Virus record (IMG/VR): IMGVR_UViG_3300037067_010056
Span: 2,975 to 66,974 of that record
Strand: one strand, 5' to 3'
Source of the DNA: a virus
Lineage: Duplodnaviria; Caudoviricetes
DNA length: 64,000 bases
Below the pieces are notes generated by a model. The model did no database searches, was not told the origin of the DNA, and was given only the letters and a program-made list of their open reading frames with translations. The translations under genes and the position numbers were made by a program. Positions 399 to 43,730 of the stretch are shown one piece after another (the stretch's first letter is position 1; each line of letters opens with the position of its first letter).

Positions 399-836
399 TC
401 AAATTACCCAACCCCTCTCATATCGAGTCGGGCGTGGTCCGCTATAGGGGAGTTCAGGTTGGGGTTCTTGAACTGCTAGATAGGTGTCAACCAAGTCCAA
501 AGCGAAGTTCTCCCATACATCCTGACTAGAGAAGTCGGTCTCAAATTCTGGGGTTAGTCGAGAGAAATGGATGGTATTAGTTATAGGGTCACAGTCCCAG
601 CGCGGTCCTTCATAATAAGCAAAACCAGAACCGTCTGGTATCGGATGTGGGGTAAAGACTCTGATATGTGCCTCGAACCACACAGCCTCACTGAGGGGAG
701 CTGCTAGCACATGGATAAAAACCTTGTAGTGATTACGAGTCTGTATAAAGTGGTCAAAGTCTGGTGGGCTACGATGATCACCAGTAACGTCAATGACTCG
801 ACAGATAGGCTCAGAAAGTCGTAGTACACTAGGCAT
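399..836 (-). CDS. Hypothetical protein with C-terminal RYxRxxVI tag
   Basis: Ends PRPTRYERGWVI*. Confidence 0.8.
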   Translation of the reverse strand: MPSVLRLSEPICRVIDVTGDHRSPPDFDHFIQTRNHYKVFIHVLAAPLSEAVWFEAHIRVFTPHPIPDGSGFAYYEGPRWDCDPITNTIHFSRLTPEFETDFSSQDVWENFALDLVDTYLAVQEPQPELPYSGPRPTRYERGWVI

Positions 837-860
837 ACTTGAATCCAGGATCTCAACCAG

Positions 861-1118
861 TTACTTTACAGTCTCCACCTCAACGGGCACCGTTGTCTTT
901 CCAAGATTCTTTCTCCACATAGCCTCACCTCGCGCATCTATGTAGTAGATGTAAGTACCGTTGTCATAGAACCGATAGACCTTAATCCCATCATGCTCTA
1001 ATAACAAAGAGACCTGAACGTCCGGATTGTTCGTCGAAGTCGTACTAACTGGATCTTTTGAGCACGAAAGTAGAGCGATACTTAGTACCGCGAGCCAAAT
1101 TCCTTTTGTCTTGAACAT
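861..1118 (-). CDS. Putative lipoprotein (DUF4884-like)
   Basis: Lipobox LLSC; LLEHDGIKVYRFYD motif; start moved to 1118, 9 nt after GGTGTA. Confidence 0.65.
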   Translation of the reverse strand: MFKTKGIWLAVLSIALLSCSKDPVSTTSTNNPDVQVSLLLEHDGIKVYRFYDNGTYIYYIDARGEAMWRKNLGKTTVPVEVETVK

Positions 1119-1186
1119 GAGCTGCATTACACCTAGACCACTTTTTCAACAAATTAAACCAGAATTGGTGTAACCATACCAACGTA

Positions 1187-1492
1187 ATGCCCGAACCAAT
1201 TCAAGAATTGAGATCCGCCAAGTCAAAGCTCCGAGCCTACGAACTCCTCGAAGCCAAGATCCTCCTTCTCCTGTCCAAGGGCGACCGGACCCACGAAGCT
1301 CTGTTTGCAGTCCTCTGCCCAACCCAAGAGGTTCAGTTTCTAGTGCGTTGTGACTCAAATGAATCAAGCCCAAAGCAAATCACCTACCGGACTTTAGGCT
1401 CACTAGTCAATAAGGGCCTCATCGAGCCTTCCAAGGGACAAACCCCAGCCATCGCCCTCATTGAGGAACTCCGTACCCTAATAGAGCCATGA
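1187..1492 (+). CDS. Hypothetical protein
   Basis: ATG start after GGTGTA; overlaps the next gene. Confidence 0.7.
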   Translation: MPEPIQELRSAKSKLRAYELLEAKILLLLSKGDRTHEALFAVLCPTQEVQFLVRCDSNESSPKQITYRTLGSLVNKGLIEPSKGQTPAIALIEELRTLIEP

Positions 1493-1755
1493 AAGCAACT
1501 GATGTTTACGCATACAACTATGCCAAAGTAGGGGATAAGTTCCTGAGTTTTCAAGTTCGAGAAATCAAGGAACACGTTGTCGTAGAGGTTACACCCACTA
1601 CAGTTCGCCTCGAGAACGGTGTGATCCTGTCCCGCATTACTGGCAAGATTGCTGGCTACAGCAATGGAGCTCTTCGATTCATGCCTAGCTACTTCCCAGC
1701 CACCAAACTCAATCTAGAACGAGCCGAACGCATGCGCCAAGGCAAGACCCGGTAG
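1489..1755 (+). CDS. Hypothetical protein
   Basis: ATGA overlap with the upstream gene. Confidence 0.7.
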   Translation: MKATDVYAYNYAKVGDKFLSFQVREIKEHVVVEVTPTTVRLENGVILSRITGKIAGYSNGALRFMPSYFPATKLNLERAERMRQGKTR

Positions 1756-1759
1756 CCCC

Positions 1760-1978
1760 ATGTCCAGAGGAAAAAACTACCGAAATCGCCCCCAAGAAGA
1801 GTGGATCTCCACCCATGTAAGCGTCGGACTGAATACCCAGGATACCCACCACCTCCGAGAAGCTTGCATCGCCACCGGTACCAATGGCGTGGAGGTGCTC
1901 CGAAGAGCTCTACGCTACTTCGTCGCCAATGGATGCCCACCCCAAGAGCCCCCTCAGTCCGACAAACCCGCGGTGTAA
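1760..1978 (+). CDS. Small DNA-binding protein, ribbon-helix-helix-like
   Basis: VSVGL strand followed by two helices (EVLRRALRYFV). Confidence 0.5.
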   Translation: MSRGKNYRNRPQEEWISTHVSVGLNTQDTHHLREACIATGTNGVEVLRRALRYFVANGCPPQEPPQSDKPAV

Positions 1979-2170
1979 TCAAACTGTGGCCGCTAAGTAT
2001 GATAAATCTTACATGTACCTCATCAACGCTATCCGAAGCGTTCTCGGCCTTGGCCCCATCCCAGGGACCGTGGAAGATACACCCGACCTCAGCTGGGATG
2101 CTTGGCCCGCTGAGTGATCTACCATAAGATACCGAGTGCTTTTCTAGGTATCATTTGATATTGTGCTCAA

Positions 2171-2362: not shown

Positions 2363-2367
2363 GTCCA

Positions 2368-3102
2368 ATGCTCGGCATAGAGAAAGCCTTCATTCAAGCC
2401 AACATCGAAACCGGACTTCCACTCGACGAGACCGCCTTCGCTGTCTGGAGCGGCTGCAGAGTATTGGACATCAAGCCGGTCCTGTATAAGTGGACCCGAG
2501 ACATCGAAGGCGAGTTGACCAAGAACACCCTCGTCCACGGTGGTGTCCCCCATGTCCTGGCAGCCCTGAGACTACTCGAGGTCCCTATCCCTACCGTCTC
2601 AGACTACCCCACCCCCTTGTTCAAATTCCTGGGTCGACATGTCATAGCCACGACTATTGGGTACCTCCGGAACCGAACAACCTCCCTCCCTGTCTTCGTC
2701 AAGCCTAGAGGCGGAACCAAACTATTCAACGGTTTCATCTACACTGGAAGCATCGAAGACCAGATCCGTCTGAACACCTTCGAGAACGATACCCTCACCT
2801 GGGAATCCCAGGTCGTCAACTTCGTCTCCGAGTACCGTGTCCTCATCCACCAAGGACTCATCTTCGCATGTCGGCACTACAAGGGAGATTGCTCCGTCTT
2901 CCCCAACATGGATGTGGCCACCCAAGCTATCCAGCGCTTCAAGGACGCGCCTGTCGGGTACTCCCTCGACCTTGGTGTCACCGATGACGGTCGAACCCTC
3001 CTCGTCGAAGTCAACGACGCCTGGGCACTAGGAGCCTACGGAACCCCAAGCATCCCGTACACAGAGATGATCGTCAACCGCTGGAAAGAGATGGTCAGTT
3101 AG
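2368..3102 (+). CDS. ATP-grasp protein (R2K clade/DUF4343-like)
   Basis: PVFVKP, SEYRVLI, YSLDLGVTDDGRTLLVEVND motifs. Confidence 0.8.
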   Translation: MLGIEKAFIQANIETGLPLDETAFAVWSGCRVLDIKPVLYKWTRDIEGELTKNTLVHGGVPHVLAALRLLEVPIPTVSDYPTPLFKFLGRHVIATTIGYLRNRTTSLPVFVKPRGGTKLFNGFIYTGSIEDQIRLNTFENDTLTWESQVVNFVSEYRVLIHQGLIFACRHYKGDCSVFPNMDVATQAIQRFKDAPVGYSLDLGVTDDGRTLLVEVNDAWALGAYGTPSIPYTEMIVNRWKEMVS

Positions 3103-3520: not shown

Positions 3521-3531
3521 ATTAACCCCCT

Positions 3532-3726: not shown

Positions 3727-3727
3727 A

Positions 3728-4018
3728 CTAGATCACCGGCTCCCTATTGTAGCGAGAAACTCTTTTCACTGGAGATGATATCTTCGGTACAAAGTCTGGA
3801 CAAATCTCCCAGTCGTTCTCCCAGTCGTTCTCTATGAAGTCGTCCACATAAGGGTTCCACTTCTTGGTGATGTCATCCTTGCCCAACACTTCGAAGTGAA
3901 CCGTCAAGGTTATGAATTGGTCCCCCTCCTTGTACGAGATGGAGGCCCCGCGCCTCCAAGCCCTCCGACGTACCCTCTTCCCAGAGAGCATCAGTACCTT
4001 GGCCTCCTCGAAGTTCAT
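3728..4018 (-). CDS. DUF2829/Tad2-like protein with C-terminal tag
   Basis: MNFEEA..SGKRVRRRAW...NDWE; ends RVSRYNREPVI*. Confidence 0.65.
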   Translation of the reverse strand: MNFEEAKVLMLSGKRVRRRAWRRGASISYKEGDQFITLTVHFEVLGKDDITKKWNPYVDDFIENDWENDWEICPDFVPKISSPVKRVSRYNREPVI

Positions 4019-4293
4019 ATCACTGGTTCCCTAGCGTATCGAGAAATCCGCTTCACCGGAGGCTTCATGACTAGTGGACTTTGATCAGGAAGGTCAAAAC
4101 CAAGAACATGAAACCGGTACGCATCCACTACATCACAGGCGAGCGCTTCAGCGAAGTTCACCATGGATACAACCCCCAGTACCACCCCTACTCCACTAAC
4201 AGTCCTAGTCAACGCTGAATATCTTGGTGTCGGTATCTGCCCTATCCAACAACGCCACATCGGAGTCATGGTCAGTACCGCAAGTGCACCCAT
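4015..4293 (-). CDS. Hypothetical membrane protein with C-terminal tag
   Basis: Hydrophobic segment; ends RISRYAREPVI*; start uncertain. Confidence 0.7.
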   Translation of the reverse strand: MGALAVLTMTPMWRCWIGQIPTPRYSALTRTVSGVGVVLGVVSMVNFAEALACDVVDAYRFHVLGFDLPDQSPLVMKPPVKRISRYAREPVI

Positions 4294-4537: not shown

Positions 4538-4604
4538 AGCCAGAGAGTATACAATAAAGGACTAATATCCTCAAGTCCCAAGTTAGGATTGTCCTAGGGA
4601 GTAG

Positions 4605-14857: not shown

Positions 14858-15157
14858 ATGCCAACCCCCACTGACTCATCCTCATCCGCTGACATGACTC
14901 TCCCCTGTGACGGGTGTCGGTTCTGTCCTACGACGTATGTGAGTGGGGTTGTCGTAGTTGGTGATGGGAGGGGTGCACCCCACTGGGATGGGGACTGTGG
15001 TCGTGGGTATGAGGTGAGCACGACGTGGGTTTGGAATGAGGACCACGAGCGTGTCATCTATCTCTTTCGGTTACCGTTCTGGACTGTATGCTCTGACCGG
15101 GATGAGCCCTATGACGGTCCACGGGTTAGTCGCTACAATCGATTACCTGTGATATAG
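14858..15157 (+). CDS. Tagged hypothetical protein (CDxCRxCPTTY family)
   Basis: Ends RVSRYNRLPVI*. Confidence 0.8.
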   Translation: MPTPTDSSSSADMTLPCDGCRFCPTTYVSGVVVVGDGRGAPHWDGDCGRGYEVSTTWVWNEDHERVIYLFRLPFWTVCSDRDEPYDGPRVSRYNRLPVI

Positions 15158-15182: not shown

Positions 15183-15857
15183 ATGCCACTTCCAGATACA
15201 ATCACTTGGTATCGTTCGAACGATGGGTCGGCGATATTCGAAGGCAGGGGTGACTATTGGAGGGTGGCGTACCTAGTCAACGGGGATCGTCACTTGGTAC
15301 TACAGCAGGTTGGTGGGCTTGTTTCAATTCCACTTACTGACTGCCACGAAGAGATAGGCAATAGAGTAAGGCCCCATGGACCCGACTTTGCCGAGTATCA
15401 TTTGAGGCGGAGCGCTTTCATTCAGGAGCGAGCGCTTGAGCTGTATCTAAGTGCAGTTCGAGCTGGCATTGACGGTATTGGGTCCTTCTATGGTGTGATT
15501 CAAGACCATGGTGATATACGAGCTGTCGAACCTATCTGGTCAAATGGACGGGTTGTCTACCTAGTACCTGGTACCTTTATGACCTACCATCGGGTTGGTT
15601 TGGTCTACTCTCCAGTGGAGCTGTTACCCGACCCAGAGCACATGTCTTTGGTTGAGCCTGAGGTACTGGGCACTCTTCCAATTACGGTTCTTGAGCGGGT
15701 GCATGGTCGTGACGTAGGCAGGCCTGATAGTGCACCTATGCAGGAGTATGCAAGTTCTTTTGGTCCTAGTATTGAGCCCACCCCTTCTGAGACTAAGCAA
15801 GCTGAGCCTGAAGTTCCGGTACGGTTATCACGGTATGAGAGGGAGCCAGTCATCTAG
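15183..15857 (+). CDS. Tagged hypothetical protein
   Basis: Ends RLSRYEREPVI*; GGTGTA 12 nt upstream. Confidence 0.85.
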   Translation: MPLPDTITWYRSNDGSAIFEGRGDYWRVAYLVNGDRHLVLQQVGGLVSIPLTDCHEEIGNRVRPHGPDFAEYHLRRSAFIQERALELYLSAVRAGIDGIGSFYGVIQDHGDIRAVEPIWSNGRVVYLVPGTFMTYHRVGLVYSPVELLPDPEHMSLVEPEVLGTLPITVLERVHGRDVGRPDSAPMQEYASSFGPSIEPTPSETKQAEPEVPVRLSRYEREPVI

Positions 15858-15926: not shown

Positions 15927-16202
15927 ATGATAGGGGTTACCATTGTCATGTCTAGGGACCTGAGGGACTTGTTGGCTGGCAAGCCTTACACTCAAGCTTT
16001 GGGGCAGGTGGTGAGTTATCTGCTCAACTTCATTGCTCAGCCTTTCACCATAACGGTTCGTCAGAATGGGGTTATGGTGAGTCAGTTCGTGCACACATTG
16101 GGTCTTGAGTTTCAGATTCCGGAGGATGAAGAGCCCTCACCTGAGCCTGAGGTGGCTCCTATTGTTCGTATCAGTCGGTACGAGAGGGAGCCGGTCATCT
16201 GA
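15927..16202 (+). CDS. Tagged hypothetical protein (MIxV family)
   Basis: Ends RISRYEREPVI*. Confidence 0.8.
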   Translation: MIGVTIVMSRDLRDLLAGKPYTQALGQVVSYLLNFIAQPFTITVRQNGVMVSQFVHTLGLEFQIPEDEEPSPEPEVAPIVRISRYEREPVI

Positions 16203-16549: not shown

Positions 16550-16957
16550 ATGCCGTTGCTTCCGATCACATCTCATGAGCTATCGAGCAAGTCTTACGCG
16601 ATACAGGATTCGGACAGTGGTGCTACATTCAAAGTCATCCTCGTTTCGAACCCCGACCATACAACTACAGTGGTAGTCGAGCCTATAAGCTACTTGGAGC
16701 CAAGTGGTTTGGGGGATGGGTCAATGATGATAACACCACCTCCACGGGTCTCTACCTATCAGCAGGAGCCTCAGGTAGTCAATGATTGGACTCTACTGGC
16801 GTTGGTGGCAGTTCGGGCCTACTTGAGGTTACGTTATCAGTTGACGGGGCAAGGGCTTGGGGCAGAAGACCTAGGCATACTTCTACAGAAGGTTCCTCCA
16901 CCTGTTCAACCCCAGTGTAGGCGGGTTTCGAGGTACTCGCGGGAGCCTGTCATCTGA
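16550..16957 (+). CDS. Tagged hypothetical protein
   Basis: Ends RVSRYSREPVI*. Confidence 0.8.
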   Translation: MPLLPITSHELSSKSYAIQDSDSGATFKVILVSNPDHTTTVVVEPISYLEPSGLGDGSMMITPPPRVSTYQQEPQVVNDWTLLALVAVRAYLRLRYQLTGQGLGAEDLGILLQKVPPPVQPQCRRVSRYSREPVI

Positions 16958-16960: not shown

Positions 16961-17368
16961 ATGCCAACGGAGCAAGCGCAACGGTTTCTTGATTGGGCTC
17001 GGTTGACGAATCCGACCATGGCGGACTATGCACTTGAGTTACTTGAGCAGTATGCTGACACGGAGGCTGGGCGGTTTCGGCTAGCGCAGTCGTATGTGAG
17101 GCCGGCTGAGCTTCTGATGCGGGGGGCGACGGGTGAAGGGTCTGGGAGTATTCAAGAAGCTCAACGAGTATGCTTATATATTGAGAGTTTCATAGGAGCC
17201 TTTCCGGAGGGGGAGCGGTTCATTGCTCCTCTCATGTCCTTACGGGAGCATCTGCTTGATCTCTATGCCTACCTGTCTCCTCGGTATACCCGGGATCAAG
17301 AGGTTCCTTTACCTGAGCCGTATGCTGGCCCTCGGGTCTCGAGGTATGATCGAAAGCCTGTGATCTGA
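16961..17368 (+). CDS. Tagged hypothetical protein
   Basis: Ends RVSRYDRKPVI*. Confidence 0.8.
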   Translation: MPTEQAQRFLDWARLTNPTMADYALELLEQYADTEAGRFRLAQSYVRPAELLMRGATGEGSGSIQEAQRVCLYIESFIGAFPEGERFIAPLMSLREHLLDLYAYLSPRYTRDQEVPLPEPYAGPRVSRYDRKPVI

Positions 17369-19170: not shown

Positions 19171-19632
19171 ATGAAGAGATATTCTGAGTTTTTCAGCACC
19201 TTGTATGACGAGTTTGGTAGTTGGGCCCACTATTCGGTTCTTCGGGCACTCGTCTGGGTTCCGCAGATGAGGGTTCACGACTTCGCGGTGATCTGGGATG
19301 AGAACCATGACACTCGAATCATTTGGGTTGTTGAGCAGCTCTATGTTCGGCTCTTACTGCACAACGTATTGTTCATAGGGGAGCGCAAGTCTCAGGTGAC
19401 GGTACTAACCATTGACCCGGTAAGTAGTGAGTTTGAGGCTGGCCTACGAGAGATCTGTGGAAGGGTCTCGTGCTACTGCGCTCATCTCTCTGTGGTTCCT
19501 TATCGGAGTGGGGGTGGGGGCATCATTGATGATTCGAGTGAGCGAGTTGATGCTTACTTGAAGGCGATTGATGCATTATGGTCTTTGGGTACCCGGGAGC
19601 CTGTTTTCAAGGCTGGTGTATCTCTGGACTGA
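19171..19632 (+). CDS. Hypothetical protein
   Basis: 153-aa ATG ORF with globular composition. Confidence 0.7.
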   Translation: MKRYSEFFSTLYDEFGSWAHYSVLRALVWVPQMRVHDFAVIWDENHDTRIIWVVEQLYVRLLLHNVLFIGERKSQVTVLTIDPVSSEFEAGLREICGRVSCYCAHLSVVPYRSGGGGIIDDSSERVDAYLKAIDALWSLGTREPVFKAGVSLD

Positions 19633-19637
19633 TTCAG

Positions 19638-20135
19638 ATGCCTACCTCGTGTGATACCTGTCGTCATTGTCCTACTACGTATCCATCGAAGGGGCTCAAG
19701 GGGAAGACTGTTAAGCAGAGTCCTGACTTTGGATGGGTGGGGACCTGTCTTCATGGGCATCCGGTTGGTATCTTGTGGGAGTGGGAGACAGATCACTTTG
19801 TGAACGAGACCTCAATGGTGCGTACCAACTTGACGCATACCATTTTGGAGTGGGACCTGATTATTCGGGTTCAGGATGCGAGTCGATTTCCCACTCAACC
19901 GAGCTTTTGGATTCTAGTAGGCCAAGAACCCATGCAGGTGGTGGAGATTGACGCTAACACTTGGAGGGTGATTCGCGGTGTTGGGGGTGAGGTTGTTACT
20001 CACATGGTGGGTGAGACTGTTATCGGTACTAAGATACCGGTGATTCGGCTGTACCGGTCAAACACTCTAGCTGATTGCTCTGACTGGGCTGAACCGGTAC
20101 GGGTCTCACGGTATGAGAGGAAGTGGGTGATCTGA
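19638..20135 (+). CDS. Tagged hypothetical protein (CDxCRxCPTTY family)
   Basis: Ends RVSRYERKWVI*. Confidence 0.8.
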   Translation: MPTSCDTCRHCPTTYPSKGLKGKTVKQSPDFGWVGTCLHGHPVGILWEWETDHFVNETSMVRTNLTHTILEWDLIIRVQDASRFPTQPSFWILVGQEPMQVVEIDANTWRVIRGVGGEVVTHMVGETVIGTKIPVIRLYRSNTLADCSDWAEPVRVSRYERKWVI

Positions 20136-20138: not shown

Positions 20139-20537
20139 ATGCCAGTGGATGAGAACGTGAATACTCGGGCGCGATCCTATCGGGTGACTGACTCGAGCAG
20201 TGGGGCGTACTTTGATGTGAACTTCATCTTTGCGCCATTCATTCATAGTCGAGAGTTCACAGCGTTCGTTGACCCGGTGGGTTATGTCGAGTTAGGGCCG
20301 GATGGGCGCAGGGTGAATCCGACACCGGTGTTCTTTCAAGCTGAGGCACCCGAGCATCTTCTTGATTGGTTTCGGTTGGCTCAGTTGCTTGTCGATACCT
20401 TTCTTGAGTACAAGTGTACGGGGAGTACCTATCGGATGGAGGGTGATCCGGTATTGATAGCCCTGAAGGAGAAGGAGCCCAGTAAGGTTGAGCCCGTGGT
20501 CCGTGTGAGTCGATACGAGCGAGAGCCCGTGATATGA
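20139..20537 (+). CDS. Tagged hypothetical protein, paralogue of 16550
   Basis: SYxxxDSxSGAxFxV shared; ends RVSRYEREPVI*. Confidence 0.8.
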   Translation: MPVDENVNTRARSYRVTDSSSGAYFDVNFIFAPFIHSREFTAFVDPVGYVELGPDGRRVNPTPVFFQAEAPEHLLDWFRLAQLLVDTFLEYKCTGSTYRMEGDPVLIALKEKEPSKVEPVVRVSRYEREPVI

Positions 20538-20851
20538 TTGAGGTTCACATATCACTTTCCAGTGTTGACATCACCTACACGAGCGGTTTCCCATTGGGGG
20601 TTGTCGATGAGGACACCTACAACGACTTGATGTCTATTCTGTGGGGTCTCGATAGCCCCAAAGCGGCTCGTCACTACTTGATGGCCGTAGCTCTCTATCT
20701 CATGGACAACTATGAGTCGTCTTCTTGGAGGGTTGTTGGGTTCATTGGCACAAGGGAAGCGGGGAGGCTTGAGTGCCTACTACCTGAAGTAGAGGTCATT
20801 CCAGAGCTACCCAAACGAGTCTCACGTTATGAACGGGAACCGGTGATCTGA
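20534..20851 (+). CDS. Tagged hypothetical protein (MIEV family)
   Basis: Ends RVSRYEREPVI*. Confidence 0.8.
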   Translation: MIEVHISLSSVDITYTSGFPLGVVDEDTYNDLMSILWGLDSPKAARHYLMAVALYLMDNYESSSWRVVGFIGTREAGRLECLLPEVEVIPELPKRVSRYEREPVI

Positions 20852-21314: not shown

Positions 21315-21552
21315 AGTATTTGGGGTCTGTTCGACTTGTGAGCACAAGGAGGAGCTATCGCCTCGTGACAAGTACATGCTCTACGCTCGTGGGTGGCGTG
21401 ATGGTGGGGCTTGTACCGCGATGAAGCACCCTGACATCGAAGTGTACTCCCGGGGCTACGAGGATGGCAGCAAGGCTCGCAACGAGGCCATCACGGCCTA
21501 CTGCAAGGAGATCGGGTATCAACCCCAGGTACTCAGGGCGCAGGGTGACTAG
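21217..21552 (+). CDS. Hypothetical protein with Cys motifs
   Basis: CKYC, CRC, CSTC; start uncertain; overlaps the upstream ORF. Confidence 0.55.
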   Translation: MKNTQLPNGHGRLICKYCRGIIHQCRCMNHTVEVFGVCSTCEHKEELSPRDKYMLYARGWRDGGACTAMKHPDIEVYSRGYEDGSKARNEAITAYCKEIGYQPQVLRAQGD

Positions 21553-21806
21553 TGACCTTCTCTGAGGCTTTGGTGAAGCTCAAGTCTGGGTCTCGAGTGC
21601 GAAGACCTCAAGGGGGTGAGCTTCACTACACTTCCAACGGGGTAATACACAAGTACGACTTAAAGTCCCATATCTGGCATCACTGGATACCAATCCAATC
21701 GGACATCTTGGCAGATGATTGGGAGTTGGTGGTAGAATCGACGATTCCGAAACCTCATCCACGTTTAGGGGTACCTACACGATATGAGAGGAAATCGGTC
21801 ATCTAA
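21552..21806 (+). CDS. DUF2829/Tad2-like protein with C-terminal tag
   Basis: MTFSEAL..LKSG.RVRR...W.P.QSDILADDWE; ends PTRYERKSVI*. Confidence 0.7.
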   Translation: MTFSEALVKLKSGSRVRRPQGGELHYTSNGVIHKYDLKSHIWHHWIPIQSDILADDWELVVESTIPKPHPRLGVPTRYERKSVI

Positions 21807-28647: not shown

Positions 28648-28768
28648 GACCTGTATTACGCACGAGAGGATGGTTTCTCAACCTAGGTAAGACGGTACTA
28701 CGAAAAACGGACCATTGTCCAGCTTGACTTTTGGTTTTCACCTGTGTACCACTGCTTGTTATCAGCTA

Positions 28769-29017
28769 ATGCCGAGAGCCGATATAAAAGTAGGTGACTT
28801 TGTTCGGCTAGTTACTGGAAGTCCGGTGATGCTGGTATTGAGGTGCTACAACGGTTTCAATAGTAGCACACCTTACGCTATAGATGTAACATGGTACGAC
28901 CAGGGGATTAAAAAAGAAGAGCAAATAGATTCCATCTGTTTTGAGAAGTGTTCCAAACCAACTAAAGAGCAGAAGAACGTGATCCAAAGTAGGTACGAGC
29001 GCCCATGGGTCATTTAG
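28769..29017 (+). CDS. YodC/DUF2158-like protein with C-terminal tag
   Basis: IKVGDFVRLVTGSPVM..VTWYD; ends QSRYERPWVI*. Confidence 0.7.
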   Translation: MPRADIKVGDFVRLVTGSPVMLVLRCYNGFNSSTPYAIDVTWYDQGIKKEEQIDSICFEKCSKPTKEQKNVIQSRYERPWVI

Positions 29018-32526: not shown

Positions 32527-33270
32527 ATGAAGTCTGACAGCTTAGATGATCGGATGCGACGGCTTGAGTGCTACCACTCGATGGCGGTCCTTCCCGGAGC
32601 TTGGATGGTTATTCGTGTTGATGGGCGGAGCTTCACTCGATTGACCAAGGTGTTTGAGCATCCGTTTGACTCCAAGTTCCACGAGTACATGGTGGCGACG
32701 GCTCTTGCCCTACTGGTCGAGCTAGGCGGGATTTATGCCTTCACAGAGTCGGACGAAATCTCGGTCCTCCTCCCTCTCGATACTGACCTATTTGGTCGAG
32801 AGATCGAGAAGCTGGTCTCAATCTCGGCGGGCGTAGCCTCCTCAGTGTTCTCGGTTCAGTTGAGTCATGCAGCTCACTTCGATAGTCGCGTGTGGGTTGG
32901 TGTCTCGAACAATGATGTGATTGACTACTTCCGGTGGAGGCAGGCGGATGCCACCCGATGCTGTCTGAACTCCTGGTGCTACTGGACTTTGAGAAAGGCT
33001 GGCAAGAGCGCCTTGGAGGCGACGAAGGCTCTTGAGGGCAAGACCTTCAGTGAGAAGAACGAGATACTGCACAAGCACGGGATCAACTTCAACAACGTTC
33101 CTGCGTGGCAGAAACGAGGATGTGGGCTCTACTGGAGGAGCTTCGAGAAGGAGGGGTTCAACCCCAAGAAGAACGAAGTCAGTATGGCTATGAGGAGACG
33201 GGTTCACATTGACAGGAACCTCCCTCGGGGTACAGAGTATGCTGACTTCGTCCTGGCTTTTATGTCATAA
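32527..33270 (+). CDS. thg1: tRNA(His) guanylyltransferase / Thg1-like 3'-5' polymerase
   Basis: IRVDGRSF, ESDEIS, FDSR, YFRWRQADA..CLN motifs. Confidence 0.9.
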   Translation: MKSDSLDDRMRRLECYHSMAVLPGAWMVIRVDGRSFTRLTKVFEHPFDSKFHEYMVATALALLVELGGIYAFTESDEISVLLPLDTDLFGREIEKLVSISAGVASSVFSVQLSHAAHFDSRVWVGVSNNDVIDYFRWRQADATRCCLNSWCYWTLRKAGKSALEATKALEGKTFSEKNEILHKHGINFNNVPAWQKRGCGLYWRSFEKEGFNPKKNEVSMAMRRRVHIDRNLPRGTEYADFVLAFMS

Positions 33271-33280
33271 TACTGTCTCT

Positions 33281-33742
33281 ATGGACCTAATCATCTTCGT
33301 GGGCCTTCAGGCAGCTGGCAAGACTACTTTCCGTGGTTTGGAGCTTCCGAACCATGTCGTTGTGAGCAAAGACCTTATGATTGGAGATCGAAGGACTGGG
33401 GTCTCGAAGGCTGTACAGCAAGTACGGCTCATTCGCGGGGCTCTGAGTAACGGTCAGTCAGCAGTCGTGGACAACACGAACGTAACCCTGGAAGAACGGG
33501 CTGAGCTGATACTGCTTGGGCGAGAGTATTCGGCTCGGGTGCTGGGTTATCACTTCAAGTCCACGGTTGAGCAGTCAATGGCACGCAATCTTATGAGGAC
33601 TGGTAAGGCCTGCATACCTCGTGTTGGCATCCTGACTAAGGCGAAGTTGTTCGTTGCCCCAACCCTAGCTGAGGGCTTTGACGAGCTGTACGAGGTCGTG
33701 TGGGGTCCGGGCAAGACCTTTCTCAAGGCTAGGGTCCTGTGA
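33281..33742 (+). CDS. P-loop kinase (AAA_33 / polynucleotide-kinase-like)
   Basis: GLQAAGKTT Walker A; VVDNTN. Confidence 0.8.
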   Translation: MDLIIFVGLQAAGKTTFRGLELPNHVVVSKDLMIGDRRTGVSKAVQQVRLIRGALSNGQSAVVDNTNVTLEERAELILLGREYSARVLGYHFKSTVEQSMARNLMRTGKACIPRVGILTKAKLFVAPTLAEGFDELYEVVWGPGKTFLKARVL

Positions 33743-34272
33743 CCATCAAGCCCATTCGATGGTTTGAGATAACGGATGGGAAGGTTCCGCCGGCCTTTCA
33801 CACCCATACCAATACCTCTGTTGTTGTGTGCTTGGACTACAAGGATACTAACAATCAGCGGGCGGGGTTTGAAGCTTACTCCCTCTGTCGTGATAGGATC
33901 TCGCTCATCAAACTCATTAGCGAGTGGAGTAGTGAACCGTTATGGGATCAGCTCACTATAGGTGCTCAGGATTTGATCAACTTGGCAGCCTTAGATACTG
34001 AGTATGGTTTCCTAGATGGGAACCTGTACGGAATCTTCTGGGTACAACAGGGTGTTACTCCGCAAGGGATTGTACACTTGGGGCTCGCATACGCAAGCTC
34101 CACCAACGAGCTGACCCCTTGCCAAGGGATGAAAACTGTAAGCGCCCGAGATGATTCGCATCACGTCTGGGTGACGCCCCAGTGCGCGATCCCATTACTT
34201 GTCGATGTCAAGCTACCCAGTGACCAGCCTATTCGTAGGTTATCACGGTATGAGCGCTCTTGGGTGATCTAG
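33739..34272 (+). CDS. Tagged hypothetical protein
   Basis: Ends RLSRYERSWVI*. Confidence 0.8.
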   Translation: MTIKPIRWFEITDGKVPPAFHTHTNTSVVVCLDYKDTNNQRAGFEAYSLCRDRISLIKLISEWSSEPLWDQLTIGAQDLINLAALDTEYGFLDGNLYGIFWVQQGVTPQGIVHLGLAYASSTNELTPCQGMKTVSARDDSHHVWVTPQCAIPLLVDVKLPSDQPIRRLSRYERSWVI

Positions 34273-36215: not shown

Positions 36216-36649
36216 TCATAAACCACCCTCAGCACGTGACTTGGACATATCTTGTGTTCCAAGAGGACAAGCCTCAATGTGGTGACTATGTCGACCCACG
36301 CGGGCACCACTGGTACGTCCGTCGAGTCTACCCTGAACCCGGAGTGGTCCTTCGGGAGCCCTCTCTGCCGTCATGGTATGTTGAGATGGGGTCGGACCAT
36401 CCTGCCTATCGACTTGAGCCTGGCGAGGAGATTCGACGGTTTTTCAATCCCAGTGAGATTGGGCTTCGACGGGAGCATCTGACCGATATGCTTCGAAGGA
36501 TGCAATTACCGGGCTTTGATTATGTTCGGGTTTCAGAGGATGGTTTTACCCTTATTGTAATAGTATCTACGCCAGATCTGGTAGGCATTCCATCTGAGGT
36601 TGATGGAATGCCTGTGGAATGTCGGTTGACTGAAACAGTCACACTTTGA
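36212..36649 (+). CDS. Hypothetical protein
   Basis: ATGA overlap. Confidence 0.7.
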   Translation: MIINHPQHVTWTYLVFQEDKPQCGDYVDPRGHHWYVRRVYPEPGVVLREPSLPSWYVEMGSDHPAYRLEPGEEIRRFFNPSEIGLRREHLTDMLRRMQLPGFDYVRVSEDGFTLIVIVSTPDLVGIPSEVDGMPVECRLTETVTL

Positions 36650-36825
36650 TTGATCTGACTTGCCTTGGCGCTCGGAGTTGGCTATGCTCCCCACACTCGT
36701 TTGGTTTCCAGTTCCCCTATACGCTACCTCCTGAAGTAATTCAAGATCAGGGCACGGGGGAACTGAGGATCAGACCAGCCATCATCAGTCGCTAGGGATT
36801 GGAACCTTGCGAGTAACTAAGGCTT

Positions 36826-36854
36826 GAGCGGCCCATCTGACAAATGGGCCGTTC
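36826..36854. terminator. Hairpin, terminator-like
   Basis: CGGCCCAT / ATGGGCCG stem in an intergenic region. Confidence 0.4.
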
Positions 36855-36885
36855 GCCTTTAATCCTCGGTGTAGGCATAAGATCT

Positions 36886-37203
36886 ATGGATTATGATGAC
36901 CCAGTCCGGATGGTAGATGACATTCGTCAACATGTCATCTATACCGGGCATCAAGTGGCACCAGCAGATGACCCCAGCCGTCAGTTTCTAGGGTACGTCT
37001 GCATGCACTGTGAGGCTGATTCCTTCTGGCATTGCTCGGCCCTGCATATTCATGCTCTTCCAAGTAGTGTACTTGAAGCCAATATGCTTCGATTCGCTTT
37101 GGGGAGTCAAGCAAGGCGCGTGAAGCTGACAGAGTACCTCAATGATAAGACTCAACCCACACCTCGTCGACTGTCACGGTACGAGCGCAAGTGGGTGATC
37201 TGA
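36886..37203 (+). CDS. Tagged hypothetical protein
   Basis: Ends RLSRYERKWVI*; GGTGTA 12 nt upstream. Confidence 0.8.
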   Translation: MDYDDPVRMVDDIRQHVIYTGHQVAPADDPSRQFLGYVCMHCEADSFWHCSALHIHALPSSVLEANMLRFALGSQARRVKLTEYLNDKTQPTPRRLSRYERKWVI

Positions 37204-37208
37204 GTTAC

Positions 37209-37391
37209 TCATCCCTTATGATGCGGCGCAGTACCTTCAAGCACGCGAGTCCCAATGTCGTTGTCGATAGCATCTAGTTCAGCTAGGCATAGCTCTGCAC
37301 GTTCTCTAGACTTATGGTGCTCCCAAGGGTATGACGCATACTTGCGCAAGTGTAGTTCGATTATAGCTAGCTTCTCTTCTCGTTTCGTCAT
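37209..37391 (-). CDS. Hypothetical protein
   Basis: Overlap with 37388. Confidence 0.55.
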   Translation of the reverse strand: MTKREEKLAIIELHLRKYASYPWEHHKSRERAELCLAELDAIDNDIGTRVLEGTAPHHKG

Positions 37392-37660
37392 AGGAGGTAG
37401 TCCTCTGCCCCTCTGTCTGGACTGAAGGGGAGCTCGAGTTGAGGTGTCTTCAACCTCTTGAGGTGTCTTCTGGCACGCTTGATGAGCGGCCTGGCGATGT
37501 CAGAGTGGACGCTGATGAAGGTTCTGTTTGGTACATACCATGAGCTTGGGGGGACGTTGGCGAGCGTTAGAAGACGTATGACGTCTTCGCGACTGAACAA
37601 GGCCAAATCAGTCTCCGAGTGCAGGTCCACGTACATCAAGAAACCTTCGTCGTCGTCCAT
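37388..37660 (-). CDS. Hypothetical protein
   Basis: GGTGTA 12 nt upstream on minus strand. Confidence 0.7.
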   Translation of the reverse strand: MDDDEGFLMYVDLHSETDLALFSREDVIRLLTLANVPPSSWYVPNRTFISVHSDIARPLIKRARRHLKRLKTPQLELPFSPDRGAEDYLL

Positions 37661-37701
37661 GGGGTAGCACTTTACACCAAGATCACTGAGATTGACAACG
37701 A

Positions 37702-38331
37702 TTGTCGCACCATGGTACGACTCGCTCGGTGCCCCTGCCCATTCACATCAAATGGTATGAGACCCCAGAGAACCTGGATGGACTGAAAGCTCTCAAGTGC
37801 TCTAGGACGGATAGCAGTGTTCCAGTGGTATCAACTGGGATGGGTGGGGTCTTGGTTAACTTCGAGCGCAGACTCGAGAAGTGGCATATCGAGTGGAATA
37901 ATGTAGATGGGAAGATCACATACCACTTCAATCTGAGTGATACTATGGGGCTGACTGACCCTTTGAACCTCATGCTACCTGTTGTGAAGTTCACCGACAG
38001 ATGGTCTAGAGCACGCGGAATGAACTTTGACCTATCAAGGTTGATTAACAACCGGGTAGGCCAACTTCTTAGGTTCCTTGGAGACAAGTGGTTATTGGTA
38101 CCGAACGGGACCCTCTTCATTGTGACGCGGGCCGGGATCAAAACATCACTGGCCGATAATAGGTCTTGGAGCCTGATTATCGGGTATTCAGCGGTTGAGC
38201 CAGAGCCTAAGTTCCAATGCAAACCGATGTACTCGGACACTCCAGAGTTGCGGATACCTAAGAGCTTTGAGGTGGTGCAGGCTCCTGACCCCCCTAGGTT
38301 ATCGCGGTATGAGCGGCCTTGGGTGATCTAG
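37702..38331 (+). CDS. Tagged hypothetical protein
   Basis: Ends RLSRYERPWVI*; start uncertain. Confidence 0.75.
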   Translation: MSHHGTTRSVPLPIHIKWYETPENLDGLKALKCSRTDSSVPVVSTGMGGVLVNFERRLEKWHIEWNNVDGKITYHFNLSDTMGLTDPLNLMLPVVKFTDRWSRARGMNFDLSRLINNRVGQLLRFLGDKWLLVPNGTLFIVTRAGIKTSLADNRSWSLIIGYSAVEPEPKFQCKPMYSDTPELRIPKSFEVVQAPDPPRLSRYERPWVI

Positions 38332-38749
38332 CCCTAGTCCTCTTCTTGGACTTATCGGGCCACTGGAAGGCGTCCAGAAGCACCTTGTACTCGATTGGTA
38401 CCTTGAGTGGGTCGAGAACAACGATACGATCTGGGTACATGAGAGTGCCCAGCTTGCTGAGGGTGAGCGGATACTTCTTGATGTCGTAGTGACTGAGATC
38501 ATCCTCAACGCCTACGACAGACAAACGATGGGGCGAAGATGAGTAGGTAAGAGGGTCCAGGGGCTTCGAGGTTAGCTTTAGGACGCGTCCTATCTTGATA
38601 GAGGCACAACGACCCAAGGCGTGCCCATAGGCGATGTATGAGCCAACCCTGATGTCCTGGCCCAACTTGTCCTTCAGAAAGTCCACCTTTTCTCGAGGGG
38701 CACCATCCTTGTGTCTTGGTGTTGGATTACCTGCAACGAAACTGGCCAT
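38294..38749 (-). CDS. SH3/KOW-like hypothetical protein, paralogue of 5201
   Basis: DKLGQDIRVGSYIAY. Confidence 0.7.
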   Translation of the reverse strand: MASFVAGNPTPRHKDGAPREKVDFLKDKLGQDIRVGSYIAYGHALGRCASIKIGRVLKLTSKPLDPLTYSSSPHRLSVVGVEDDLSHYDIKKYPLTLSKLGTLMYPDRIVVLDPLKVPIEYKVLLDAFQWPDKSKKRTRARSPKAAHTAIT

Positions 38750-39901: not shown

Positions 39902-39914
39902 ATACTCATGAATC

Positions 39915-39953: not shown

Positions 39954-39957
39954 AATT

Positions 39958-40743: not shown

Positions 40744-40744
40744 G

Positions 40745-41065
40745 ATGCCTATCGAGGTTGTATTCCGAGAGTCTGAAGACGACTTTGAGGTCTTCAGCGC
40801 AGGGGGTACCCTTGGCCCGGATGGGCCTTCTGAGCTATTCCAAGACTTGAATGAAATTCTGGACCAGGGTGGATCGAATCGTCAGATCCTGATGAATATA
40901 GCGGGTCGCTTGATTGACGTATACCCAGGCGTTGAGTGGACTATCAAGGTTGAGCGGTACGACGGATACACTTATTGGCTTCGATTTGACATTGGTGTTG
41001 GTAACTCTCTTGCATCAAACCCAATCAAACGGATCTCGAGGTACGAGAGGGACCCAGTGATATGA
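40745..41065 (+). CDS. Tagged hypothetical protein (MxIEV family)
   Basis: Ends RISRYERDPVI*. Confidence 0.8.
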   Translation: MPIEVVFRESEDDFEVFSAGGTLGPDGPSELFQDLNEILDQGGSNRQILMNIAGRLIDVYPGVEWTIKVERYDGYTYWLRFDIGVGNSLASNPIKRISRYERDPVI

Positions 41066-41418
41066 TTGAAGTAGTACTCAATGTCCAACCCAATAGAACA
41101 GTTCTGTTTTATGGGTTTGAGTGGCCAACCGTTGAGGAGGATGGTTTCTCTCCTGAGGGAGCTGAGGAGTTGGAGCGTACTCTCGGTGAGTTGCTTGGGG
41201 AGTTGGATGTTGGCGAAGCTGTCTCAACCAAGATACTGACAATATCGAATTACTTATTCGATAACTACTATGTATACTCATCGCGCGTGGTCATTCTCCA
41301 TGATCTGGTCGAGTTCAGTCGAATCGAGTACAACGTGATTGATAATCTACCAGTAGGGGAGCCGGAACCAAAACTAGTCAACCGAGTCTCTAGGTATGAT
41401 CGGGAGCCGGTCATATAA
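41062..41418 (+). CDS. Tagged hypothetical protein (MIEV family)
   Basis: Ends RVSRYDREPVI*. Confidence 0.8.
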   Translation: MIEVVLNVQPNRTVLFYGFEWPTVEEDGFSPEGAEELERTLGELLGELDVGEAVSTKILTISNYLFDNYYVYSSRVVILHDLVEFSRIEYNVIDNLPVGEPEPKLVNRVSRYDREPVI

Positions 41419-41746
41419 CTGGGTCCCGCTGGTATCGGTTCTTGAGTTTGGGTGTTTTCTTAGGCTTGGTCAGCATGGGCTCTCCCTTGACCCCGACCGG
41501 CGGTGAGATCCACTTCCCGTGGCATCGAGAGCAGGTCCGATGGGTGTGAGCCTCCTTGAGCCAGCACCACCGGCGTAGCCGTACCCAGAATCCAATGAGA
41601 GGGCCACAGGCGACTGGGGTAAAAACTCCTTCGTGCCCGTGGTTCTCTCCACTACCACATCGGGAGCACCTAAGATCATCTATTTTCCAAACGAAGAAGT
41701 AGTAGTCCCCGGCTCCACAGTAAGGGCAGGGTCCGTTGGTTGCCAT
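41411..41746 (-). CDS. Tagged Zn-finger protein
   Basis: CPYC, CSRC x2; ends KNRYQRDPVI*. Confidence 0.75.
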   Translation of the reverse strand: MATNGPCPYCGAGDYYFFVWKIDDLRCSRCGSGENHGHEGVFTPVACGPLIGFWVRLRRWCWLKEAHTHRTCSRCHGKWISPPVGVKGEPMLTKPKKTPKLKNRYQRDPVI

Positions 41747-41788
41747 TGATCTTCACATACACTGAATCGTTGCTACTTTTCAAGGGGC

Positions 41789-42214
41789 GTGATAGTTAAG
41801 GAGCCTCAGTTGGAGCTAACCATGCCATTTTCAGTCGGTGATATCGTCCGAGTGGTCAAGCAGCCGACAGACATGCATGCTCGTATTTTGGGTGAGGTGG
41901 GGTTTATTGAGTCCCTTCACGAGAATGGGACTCATGCAGGGTTCTGCGCGTTGAAGATCACTGGGGAGGTAGGTAGTTGCGGTACAGTAATGCTTGACTG
42001 TATCGCTCCCGAGTCGGCTCCACGCTGGGTTGAAGCAAAGCGGTGGCATGACGATAACTTGGCCAGAAGGCTAGAAGAGTTCAGAGCACGAACCGAGCGA
42101 ATCAACGCCAGAATCCAAGAGATCGCAAAGAAGCACTTAGTCTCATTCGATGAAGCGACTGAGATTCATGAGGAGATTGAGCATGTGATCTCACGAAGCG
42201 GGTGGCCTGAATAG
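41789..42214 (+). CDS. Hypothetical protein
   Basis: FSVGDIVRV motif; start uncertain. Confidence 0.7.
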   Translation: MIVKEPQLELTMPFSVGDIVRVVKQPTDMHARILGEVGFIESLHENGTHAGFCALKITGEVGSCGTVMLDCIAPESAPRWVEAKRWHDDNLARRLEEFRARTERINARIQEIAKKHLVSFDEATEIHEEIEHVISRSGWPE

Positions 42215-42286
42215 CCGTGGATGACTCAACTCGTCAGCTGACCCCTTTGGGGCGAGAATTAGTTATATGATGGTGTACTGGTTTCC

Positions 42287-42775
42287 ATGGATCATCTAAG
42301 ATTTCCGAAACCATTTGATCAGACTAACGGGCAACCCAGTATCCAGATCCCTCCAATTCAAGTATTGGAGATCTACAATCGGTCTCAGAACCCACCAAAG
42401 ACCCAAGTTGACCAATGGGTGCGAGAATGGTTCGAGTGGAAGGCAAAAGACAGTGGGTGGGCAAGTATCACTTGGCTTCAGTCAAACCCTGAGGTGTCAG
42501 CAAAGAACGATTGCTTATTGAGCGTCGTCACGAAAACTGATGACTATACCACGCGTATCACTGAACTAAGTACGGATGGTGATCCGGTGTCACTCTTGGA
42601 GTATCAACAGGCGTTGGGGATGGTAAGCAAGGTGCTCCGGCAAGCACTACCCGAATGTAAATTGACTCTCTTGGAAGAGCCTAATCAAGTAGGCAAGGTG
42701 GTCCTGAGCACCCCTGCAGGGAAGCCCCTCTTGATAGTTCAAAAGTTCGAGAGTATCGAGGCCCAGCATGCCTGA
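42287..42775 (+). CDS. Hypothetical protein
   Basis: GGTGTA 9 nt upstream. Confidence 0.75.
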   Translation: MDHLRFPKPFDQTNGQPSIQIPPIQVLEIYNRSQNPPKTQVDQWVREWFEWKAKDSGWASITWLQSNPEVSAKNDCLLSVVTKTDDYTTRITELSTDGDPVSLLEYQQALGMVSKVLRQALPECKLTLLEEPNQVGKVVLSTPAGKPLLIVQKFESIEAQHA

Positions 42776-43475
42776 GGAAGTAGAATATGCCTACGAGTAT
42801 AAGGACCACATGTGGGTCCGCAAGCTGAATGCTGCTTGCCATTGGGAGATCAAGGAACTCTGGATGCATGCGGTCCCGTATGCCGACCTTCGGAAGTTTG
42901 GGCGACATGAACTATACCTGGTTCTAAAACCTCAGAAGATTGATGAAACTGGAAGGTGCCATCAATCAACACTTGATGGGGTTGGTATCTACACGGTTAG
43001 GGGCCAGCCTGAGCATCACTTCATCACGATCATGAAGGATGGGTCTGAGAGGGTGTTCTGCGAGAACCATCATGTGTCCCTATCGGGTCAGAGGTGTCGC
43101 TATTGCGATGGTGATACGTCTCCCCCTATCACAGAGTTCGAAGTCTATGAACGCCACATTATGGCTCCTATAGAAGACCGTGAGATTGACAGGCAGGATA
43201 TTTGGCCGATATCAACCTTCTGTGGAGTGTCGGACACCATTCAGCGTAAGTTCGAGCAGCTGGTGCGTGATCATCAAAAAGTATGCCACCGTCGTCACTT
43301 CGGCGTTGATAACCGGTGGATATTCATGTTTGAGCCAACCCATGCGGTCCCGGTTGCCGCATGGGTCAAGGTCAGCGTAAGGTGTCAACATTGTGGGCTT
43401 GAAGTTGTACTATTGAACGAGATCGATGATGACTGCCCCTATGCCAAGCATTCAAGGGCTGACCTCCATCTCTGA
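42768..43475 (+). CDS. His/Cys-rich hypothetical protein
   Basis: CRYC, CQHC; overlap. Confidence 0.75.
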   Translation: MPEEVEYAYEYKDHMWVRKLNAACHWEIKELWMHAVPYADLRKFGRHELYLVLKPQKIDETGRCHQSTLDGVGIYTVRGQPEHHFITIMKDGSERVFCENHHVSLSGQRCRYCDGDTSPPITEFEVYERHIMAPIEDREIDRQDIWPISTFCGVSDTIQRKFEQLVRDHQKVCHRRHFGVDNRWIFMFEPTHAVPVAAWVKVSVRCQHCGLEVVLLNEIDDDCPYAKHSRADLHL

Positions 43476-43478
43476 ACC

Positions 43479-43730
43479 ATGTATATCTCTGAAAAGTACA
43501 AGGAATCCATTCGGAGGTACATCAAGGCTGAGGTAGAGCGTGGGACTGGTCCCATAACGTATGAGCTTGGGGACTGGGTCATCTACAATCGGGTTTGGGA
43601 TGACTTGAAGAATGAGATGTGTCGACGCGCGGGGGTTGTTGGGGCGGTCACAGCCAATATGGTGACGGAGCGTCTACACATGCTGATGATACGTCGAGTG
43701 TCGAGGTATGACCGCCCCTGGGTGATCTGA
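43479..43730 (+). CDS. Tagged hypothetical protein
   Basis: Ends RVSRYDRPWVI*. Confidence 0.8.
   Translation: MYISEKYKESIRRYIKAEVERGTGPITYELGDWVIYNRVWDDLKNEMCRRAGVVGAVTANMVTERLHMLMIRRVSRYDRPWVI

Follow-up and report, generated by a model that had tools for sequence, protein, structure and literature searches.

A conserved C-terminal peptide on unrelated accessory proteins of an uncultured huge-phage clade: a candidate docking motif

Why should twenty small proteins encoded on one fragment of a phage genome, on bodies that are mostly unrelated, end in the same peptide? The question is raised by a window of 64,000 nucleotides, bases 2975-66974 of the 66,974-bp IMG/VR virus record IMGVR_UViG_3300037067_010056 (G000), in which a first-pass annotation had noted a tag, R-[VLI]-S-R-Y-[EDN]-R-x-[PW]-V-I followed by the stop codon, at the end of twenty open reading frames (ORFs), and had proposed that it acts as a portable address label. 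The positions listed in that annotation are ORF starts, which for minus-strand genes are the low coordinate; residues of the tag are numbered here from the terminal Ile, which is position 0, with upstream positions negative. In the present study, all 20 ORFs were confirmed to end in the tag, and the tag is real, under selection at the level of the peptide, strictly C-terminal, portable and restricted to one clade. The observation is solid, and it is larger than had been reported. We consider it probable, at roughly 60%, that the tag is a docking motif bound through its free C-terminus by one clade-specific receptor, in other words an address label.

The full form, [ST]-R-Y-x-R-x-[PW]-V-I at the C-terminus, was found in 17 of the 20 window ORFs, and the other three carried slightly degenerate versions (PTRYERGWVI, NRYQRDPVI and PTRYERKSVI). 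None of the six frames of the whole record (66,974 bp) contained RY.R..VI internally, and in all related loci the internal look-alikes numbered three, all of them loose and without the core. Across 63 distinct tags from the window and related contigs, Arg at -7, Tyr at -6, Arg at -4 and Ile at 0 were invariant; Val at -1 was present in 62, Ser or Thr at -8 in 61 and Arg at -10 in 46, and position -2 was occupied by Pro (38), Trp (24) or Ser (1), giving four invariant and four near-invariant positions. In the distant members L050 and L051, Arg at -10 was often gone and [ST]-R-Y-x-R-x-[PW]-V-I was retained, which defines the latter as the minimal core; this core is usually preceded by R-[VLI], so that the tag comprises 9-11 residues, and it was found on at least 36 body families. 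No other C-terminal dipeptide was enriched in these genomes. At the nucleotide level, the Arg residues at -7 and -4 were each encoded by all six Arg codons, Ser at -8 by both TCN and AGY, Ile at 0 by ATC, ATA and ATT and Val by several codons, and the stops that followed were TGA (40), TAG (14) and TAA (9). Invariant residues combined with free synonymous codons and all three stops indicate that selection acts on the peptide and exclude a nucleic-acid element. The first-pass annotation was thus right that the peptide always stands at the extreme C-terminus and that its codons vary freely, and neither of the two sequence results that it had named as contrary to its proposal, an equal frequency at internal positions and a DNA-level consensus without synonymous variation, was found.

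The window is probably a fragment of an uncultured huge phage with a genome of about 450-500 kb. Two syntenic relatives are present in IMG/VR, G001 (66 kb) and G002 (98.5 kb), and their completeness according to CheckV, 13% and 19%, respectively, points to a full genome near 500 kb. Moreover, a 443-kb metagenome contig contains pieces near-identical to G001. The DNA runs that contain the window phage come from groundwater and landfill metagenomes. When IMG/VR was searched with strict back-translated patterns, the matches were confined to the relatives G001 and G002, with several in each; with looser patterns, a single tag was found in each of two more fragments, both of them from the same samples, along with one chance match without a stop. 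In the JGI metagenomes (Pro version), 16 stretches were found on 12 contigs, often several per contig, and the tag-bearing contigs included the one of 443 kb. The density differed strongly between fragments, with one tag in the 36.6 kb of G003 against 22 in the 98.5 kb of G002 and 9 in the G001 contig, and the first two counts indicate that tags are concentrated in certain genome regions. In contrast to these phage contigs, the genomes of 185,579 prokaryote species (596 Gb) gave zero matches to both strict patterns, which indicates that the complete tag was not copied from a host protein and that this collection contains no such phage, whether binned or integrated. A pattern scan of C-termini in relatives and hosts, the check proposed in the first-pass annotation, therefore gave tags in related phages and none in prokaryote genomes, and the tag is restricted to one clade of phage contigs. 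A profile search with 40-residue tails against 5.8 billion proteins returned 10 hits at E<=1, from which a global tag count cannot be derived, since database-wide E-values are unsuited to so short a motif. The open-access literature and Pfam, PHROGs and NCBI-style names yielded no description of such a tag, in agreement with the earlier statement that none was known.

The bodies that carry the tag are diverse. After the last 12 residues had been trimmed, 73 tagged ORFs fell into 36 BLAST clusters and the 20 window proteins into about 16, so that the description of the latter as unrelated holds for most of them and fails for some paralogues. In homologous pairs the bodies were 33-47% identical and the tags 79-84%, and even between unrelated bodies the tags were 68% identical. 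With few exceptions, the orthologues found in G001, G002 and the metagenome contigs had the tag as well. Two window ORFs are Tad2-like (Pfam E 1e-9), and in both the tag stands behind a complete domain (residues 1-67 of 96 and 1-60 of 84); in G002, a tag stands behind an HU domain (Pfam) with a spacer between them. The Pro/Glu linker described previously was also borne out, the 20 residues before the tag containing 14.5% Pro against 5.8% in the bodies and 9.8% Glu against 6.2%, with Lys also enriched. The claim of different folds stands for the Tad2-like and Zn-ribbon proteins and falls for the DUF2158/YodC-like protein, whose match lies below the Pfam cut-off. Similarly, the membrane protein claimed for the window has a merely borderline segment (4015-4293, minus strand), and clear membrane proteins with three transmembrane segments, two orthologous clients, were found in more distant contigs; judged by the basic residues after the third segment, these are predicted to carry the tag on a cytoplasmic tail. 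The tag is thus present on soluble, DNA-binding and membrane clients, none of them with a signal peptide and most of them with no recognised function. Untagged homologues exist for a few (an HU-like paralogue, a tail-fibre-like protein, and distant relatives of 16961-17368 in G001 and G002), which shows that the tag is an add-on. Tagged genes make up 15-20% of local genes and about one sixth of the accessory genes in the clade.

These results also dispose of the simplest objection, that the shared ending is not a functional peptide and reflects a DNA or RNA element (a terminator, a repeat or a recombination site), a family of paralogues, or chance. Paralogy does account for the reduction of the 20 window proteins to their 16 or so clusters. 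However, back-translated R-Y-x-R-x-x-V-I-stop had 20 window matches where 100 dinucleotide-preserving shuffles gave an average of 0.02, the codons showed no nucleotide consensus, and the bodies had demonstrably different domains and were far less conserved than the tag. By these counts, by codon use and by the comparison of tags with bodies, this explanation is refuted, and we give it practically no weight.

The core inference of an address label therefore holds, resting on C-terminal-only placement, synonymous variation, retention over diverging bodies and placement after complete domains. In the docking reading, the Pro/Glu-rich spacer would hold the tag away from the folded body, and a single receptor would read it in an extended conformation. 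The conserved positions alternate with variable ones, since 0, -2, -4, -6, -8 and -10 (I, P/W, R, Y, S/T and R) are conserved and -3 and -5 are variable; this is the pattern expected of an extended strand that contacts a receptor with one of its faces, by beta-strand addition for example, and the six conserved residues would then form one continuous strand face. Since all 63 tags abut the stop codon directly, the free carboxylate of the terminal Ile is implied to be part of the recognised epitope. Many clients would meet one receptor, and such an arrangement would freeze the tag while the bodies drift. The receptor itself is most likely encoded by the phage, outside the 67-kb fragment. It is a more tentative extension of this reading that the tag forms a clade-wide address code, routing at least one sixth of the accessory proteins to one phage-encoded receptor or machine of an undescribed kind; the clients would be anti-defence sponges, DNA-binding proteins, proteins linked to RNA repair and membrane proteins, and the machine might, equally tentatively, be a turnover timer or a delivery platform.

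Several points weigh against the docking reading. Eleven conserved residues are unusually long and rigid for a simple degron or a PDZ ligand, and the phage clade is uncultured. A Pfam search of the 97 untagged window proteins recognised no PDZ, TPR, SecB-like or other known peptide-binding domain. The sole candidate reader suggested by synteny, and weakly so, is a 139-residue protein (18229-18648, plus strand), which we regard as a lead only; AlphaFold2 (AF2) gave no confident model of it, with a poor mean predicted local distance difference test (pLDDT) score of 61. This protein is acidic and Trp-rich, with invariant YRVGQGQVETK and WDxLWWWD motifs, and it adjoins the main tag cluster in G000, G001/L040, G002 and L043. 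Its homologues number 8 among 5.8 billion proteins, all within the clade. The ESM Atlas returned nothing usable for it or for a conserved 227-residue neighbour. Moreover, tags are so dense that most genes lie at most two genes from one, and neighbourhood statistics are uninformative.

If the tag is a docking motif, several outcomes of docking can be considered. The clients may be handed over to an adaptor or an AAA+ unfoldase or protease for turnover timed by the phage, a doubtful but serious candidate, or they may, with a similarly low likelihood, be recruited to a hub or site without proteolysis; loading into the virion for co-injection seems unlikely and covalent modification more unlikely still, and something else would make up the remainder.

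Turnover would make the tag a C-terminal degron, a special case of docking in which the basic and aromatic part binds an adaptor and V-I-COOH engages an AAA+ protease of the host or the phage, so that a whole class of accessory proteins is cleared together or the protease is flooded. The ssrA tag combines an SspB site with LAA-COOH, and the MuA-type ClpX signal is basic. The phage tag resembles the ssrA/tmRNA (SspB, ClpXP) and MuA-type signals as an 11-residue peptide at the extreme C-terminus with a free aliphatic end (the last two residues are both aliphatic in 62 of 63 tags), transferable to any protein and laid out in two parts, upstream recognition residues and a terminal hydrophobic pair. 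A degron would suit soluble clients as well as membrane clients with a cytoplasmic tail, and would need no stoichiometric hub for 15-20% of local genes. The likeness of V-I-COOH and the upstream R-Y-x-R to ssrA and ClpX signals would nevertheless be one of form only: the phage tag is encoded in frame before a normal stop and is not added by tmRNA, and R-Y-x-R with P/W-V-I is unrelated to AANDENYALAA and much more strongly conserved. Natural degrons are short and degenerate, unlike a tag with eight invariant or near-invariant positions; its absence from the prokaryote genomes means that a full host signal was not copied; no protease or adaptor gene was recognised in the phage fragments; and there is no obvious gain in destabilising a stoichiometric sponge such as Tad2. 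We therefore hold the degron as a possible but doubtful version of docking.

Loading into the virion, by contrast, would require the tag to dock anti-defence and DNA-binding proteins in the procapsid or tail, to be ejected into the next host. Encapsulin cargo proteins consist of a folded body, a flexible linker and a short C-terminal peptide, and the tagged proteins share this architecture by analogy, in that a flexible, Pro-rich linker joins unrelated bodies to a short conserved peptide at the end. The Tad2-like anti-Thoeris sponges and the HU-like client would profit from immediate delivery; in addition, a domain of a tail-fibre-like protein recurs in one client family, which also has weak PHROG matches to tail and virion families. 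The known encapsulin peptides, however, are read by one HK97-fold shell and serve soluble cargo; the phage tag shows no sequence similarity to them, and some of its clients are membrane proteins. The capsid-targeting sequence of T4 is N-terminal and cleaved by the prohead protease, whereas the phage tag is exclusively C-terminal and resembles neither T4 nor encapsulin signals. Two orthologous clients with three transmembrane segments cannot be capsid cargo, which makes universal capsid loading unlikely and weakens this role, one of those named in the first-pass annotation, as a general one. The tagged genes lie in long arrays of small accessory genes and not beside structural genes, no capsid, portal or prohead-protease gene was present in the fragments examined, and in the window and the fragments G003 and G005 no protein was assigned to a capsid or encapsulin family by Pfam or PHROGs. 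Virion loading is thus an unlikely purpose of the tag.

Improbable, too, is a substrate mark, in which the R2K.2 ATP-grasp or the ThiF/E1-like enzyme of the window would activate the terminal Ile carboxylate and extend or ligate it. Both enzymes are present: the ATP-grasp (2368-3102) is a good R2K.2 member (Pfam R2K_2, E 6e-39) whose gene lies among three tagged genes, and the ThiF/E1-like enzyme lies at 55848-56678 (Pfam ThiF, E 5e-72). The R2K clade has been predicted to modify proteins, and RimK extends the protein C-terminus (PMC4431377); the R2K.2 family in particular is predicted to ligate amino acids onto proteins, with targets unknown (PMC4431377; PMC7824862). Furthermore, the free C-terminus of the tag is clearly essential. 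The ATP-grasp gene is intact in G000 and G001, yet its orthologue in G002 (C1:75654-76066, minus strand) is a remnant that lacks residues 21-125 through an in-frame deletion, the nucleotide-binding VKP region among them, and has a 1-nt frameshift after GVTDDG, near residue 211; the gene adjoining this remnant and 21 others in G002 have perfect tags. The ThiF gene, which shares a variable block with the CRISPR locus, is present in G000 and G002 but was not found in the syntenic G001 contig with its 9 tags. These two results show that neither enzyme tracks the tag, and the earlier proposal of a mark for a carboxylate-activating enzyme is accordingly not supported; a second copy of either gene elsewhere in the remaining 80% of the genome is possible. 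Both R2K.2 and ThiF proteins are widespread in phages and bacteria without the tag. RimK, E1 and MccB-type enzymes use Glu, Gly-Gly or Asn ends; the known substrates of E1 enzymes (ThiF/MoeB/MccB) are Gly-Gly beta-grasp proteins or carry a C-terminal Asn or Glu, whereas the tags end in V-I.

The ThiF gene opens a block of three at 55848-57355 (plus strand), where a canonical-looking ThiF/MoeB-type E1 with two CxxC pairs is followed by 142- and 83-residue ORFs of no family. The block is absent from G001. With GG five residues before its end, the 83-residue product is possibly a small module of the ubiquitin-like type. Two HExxH proteins (21848-23125 and 52062-53477, both plus strand) were considered as tag peptidases and rejected, the family being far wider than the tag: such zincins are common in large phage contigs, where they are embedded in proteins of 1000-3000 residues and up to 3182. 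The two in the window are paralogues that share an N-terminal ALxVAxRY and resemble the metallopeptidase module of polyvalent proteins, and the 425-residue copy is missing from the G002 contig. Sequence searches of the PDB with this zincin and with the ATP-grasp found nothing.

It is very unlikely that the tag acts in cis and not as a label, whether as a signal that the nascent chain gives at termination, by pausing the ribosome or coupling translation, or as an end cap resistant to exopeptidases, even though it always stands at the stop and some tagged genes overlap the next start (ATA-TGA / ATGA). A Met-Pro N-terminus was found in 20 of 47 tagged proteins of G000, G001 and G002 against 46 of 397 untagged ones (odds ratio 5.7, p about 8e-7, not corrected for orthology). 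Both this start and Pro at -2 (38 of 63 tags) would hinder exopeptidases, and both ends of such proteins may be resistant. On the other hand, Trp occupies -2 in 24 of 63 tags, and a cap or an arrest peptide would need no invariant Arg at -7, Tyr at -6 and Arg at -4 on 36 families without a reader in trans. Moreover, 5 of 17 plus-strand tagged genes end a co-directional block and face a convergent gene, and the lack of a same-strand downstream gene argues against translational coupling. Upstream motifs (GGTGTA and Shine-Dalgarno-like) were not enriched before tagged genes, which gave no evidence of a shared expression class.

The docking motif that we favour can be compared with known systems in which a terminal peptide meets a partner. 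The SSB tail (DDDIPF), the NWETF pentapeptide of chemoreceptors, PIP-box and other clamp-binding motifs, and PDZ class II ligands are likewise short, tethered C-terminal peptides that meet a common partner, which recognises the free carboxylate and a hydrophobic final residue as well. In the SSB and chemoreceptor systems, however, one protein carries the tail and many read it, whereas the phage tag has many carriers; it is also longer (9-11 positions) and basic, and no PDZ or clamp gene was seen in the window. A PDZ class II ligand has a free carboxylate and is hydrophobic at 0 and -2; the tag has Ile at 0 in 63 of 63 cases, and at -2 it has Trp in 24, Pro in 38 and Ser in 1. The clients have no signal peptides, whereas bacterial PDZ proteins mostly reside in the periplasm, and the 97 untagged window proteins include no PDZ family. 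Another parallel is the ChAD (chaperone-addiction) tail of toxin-antitoxin-chaperone systems (10.1101/2024.02.24.581848), a portable C-terminal tail on unrelated antitoxins whose fate is decided by one dedicated SecB-like chaperone. There, a locus has one client with the chaperone gene adjacent, in contrast to the dozens of clients per genome found here with a different sequence; no SecB-like gene was recognised among the window proteins, and the clients are not antitoxin families. The tag lacks testable defining features of each known family, and its sequence matches none.

Further leads to a reader, and leads only, come from G005 (IMGVR_UViG_3300031712_000051), a further fragment of such a phage, where locus L068:621-8576 encodes a VWA protein, an RtcB RNA ligase and a GroEL-like chaperonin, the stop of the chaperonin gene overlapping the start of a tagged 210-residue gene. 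The chaperonin and the VWA protein are the candidates there.

Most accessory proteins of huge phages have no known function, and a shared peptide provides an experimental handle on dozens of them at once; it also puts them in a single functional class, to which known anti-defence proteins (Tad2-like) belong. Should the reader prove to be a machine of the phage that turns over, recruits or delivers its clients, it would represent a new layer of infection control, and the tag with its reader could serve as an orthogonal targeting module. If the reader were an ordinary host protease, this would be, to our knowledge, the first known case of a uniform encoded degron on a large share of phage genes.

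The tagged ORFs of the window are as follows. At the left end, the minus-strand ORF 399..836 (145 residues, no Pfam family) ends in PRPTRYERGWVI, the tag with its stop occupying 399-434. The first Tad2-like protein, 3728..4018 (minus strand, 96 residues), consists of the Tad2-like residues 1-67, an 18-residue linker and the tag KRVSRYNREPVI; its AF2 model was poor overall (pLDDT 53), and the values below 50 in the tail lend weak support to disorder there. It is neighboured on the same strand by 4015..4293 (92 residues), which has the borderline hydrophobic segment and ends in KRISRYAREPVI.

The main cluster on the plus strand begins with 14858..15157 (99 residues), a member of a Cys-motif family ending in PRVSRYNRLPVI, whose orthologues in G001, G002, L040 and L046 all carry the tag. 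Next come 15183..15857 (224 residues), with a long Pro/Glu linker before VRLSRYEREPVI, and 15927..16202 (91 residues), ending in VRISRYEREPVI. Two ORFs of 135 residues each follow: 16550..16957, which ends in RRVSRYSREPVI and is a paralogue of 20139-20537, and 16961..17368, which ends in PRVSRYDRKPVI and is the final gene of a co-directional block. The plus-strand ORF 19578..20135 (185 residues, ending in VRVSRYERKWVI) may truly start with the Met-Pro at 19638. Its residues 71-149 align at 45% identity with the first 80 residues of the tail-fibre-like protein 54057-55034 (minus strand), the C-terminus of which matches K1-lyase_C; by this alignment, a virion-type domain is reused on a small tagged protein. 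It is followed by 20139..20537 (132 residues, VRVSRYEREPVI) and 20534..20851 (105 residues, KRVSRYEREPVI), both on the plus strand, the latter a paralogue of 41062-41418.

The second Tad2-like protein, 21552..21806 (plus strand, 84 residues, Tad2-like residues 1-60), bears the degenerate tag VPTRYERKSVI, in which a Ser codon (TCG) stands at the P/W position (tag at 21780-21806). A related case occurs in G002 (C1:96237-96263, plus strand), where RVSRYDRK is followed by TAG, V-I and TGA, so that a stop codon occupies the very position of P/W. Single-base steps through Ser link the codons for Pro and Trp at -2 (CCG, TCG and TGG), and TAG is also a single-base neighbour; both tags look like intermediates or casualties of switching between Pro and Trp.

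Further along the plus strand, 28769..29017 (82 residues, with an alternative TTG start at 28715) has the DUF2158 match below the cut-off and ends in IQSRYERPWVI. The 177-residue product of 33739..34272, which ends in RRLSRYERSWVI, is encoded directly 3' of the genes for a Thg1-like enzyme and an AAA_33 kinase, and its G002 orthologue retains the tag. The Thg1-like tRNA-repair enzyme, the kinase and the tagged protein form an overlapping operon (32527-34272, plus strand) that is conserved in G002, which links the tagged protein to RNA repair. The next two plus-strand ORFs are 36844..37203 (119 residues, RRLSRYERKWVI) and 37702..38331 (about 200 residues, ending in PRLSRYERPWVI); the start of the latter is uncertain, since its orthologues begin with MPLPIHIKWY, and orthologues at 57-58% identity have kept an identical tag.

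The last group comprises 40745..41065 (106 residues, KRISRYERDPVI) and 41062..41418 (118 residues, NRVSRYDREPVI) on the plus strand, the minus-strand 41411..41746 (111 residues), a Zn-ribbon protein (CPYC...CSRC) with the degenerate tag KLKNRYQRDPVI whose orthologues in G001 and L044 keep the tag, and 43479..43730 (plus strand, 83 residues), in which the tag RRVSRYDRPWVI follows a hydrophobic helix directly, without a Pro/Glu linker. The convergent genes 41062-41418 and 41411-41746 overlap tail to tail by exactly 8 nt (41411-41418), the V-I-stop GTC ATA TAA on one strand being GTT ATA TGA on the other. The same overlap was found at 44369-44376 in G001, 7333-7340 in L044, 1446-1453 in L050 and 2288-2295 in L051; it involves two unrelated gene pairs and is conserved across genomes.

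Besides the R2K.2 ATP-grasp, the ThiF enzyme, the Thg1-like enzyme with its AAA_33 kinase and the tail-fibre-like protein, the recognisable genes of the window encode an HU-like protein, a P22-antirepressor/T5orf172 protein, a DUF2786/DUF7168 protein, a PvuII-like nuclease and a Cas12-like protein with a CRISPR array; most other genes have no recognised family. The Cas12-like gene (60065-62038, minus strand) is 95% identical between G000 and G002, and the homologue in G001 (36607-38433, minus strand) is only 27% identical and lies at a different location. The CRISPR locus thus appears, from these comparisons, to be a mobile island inside this phage clade.

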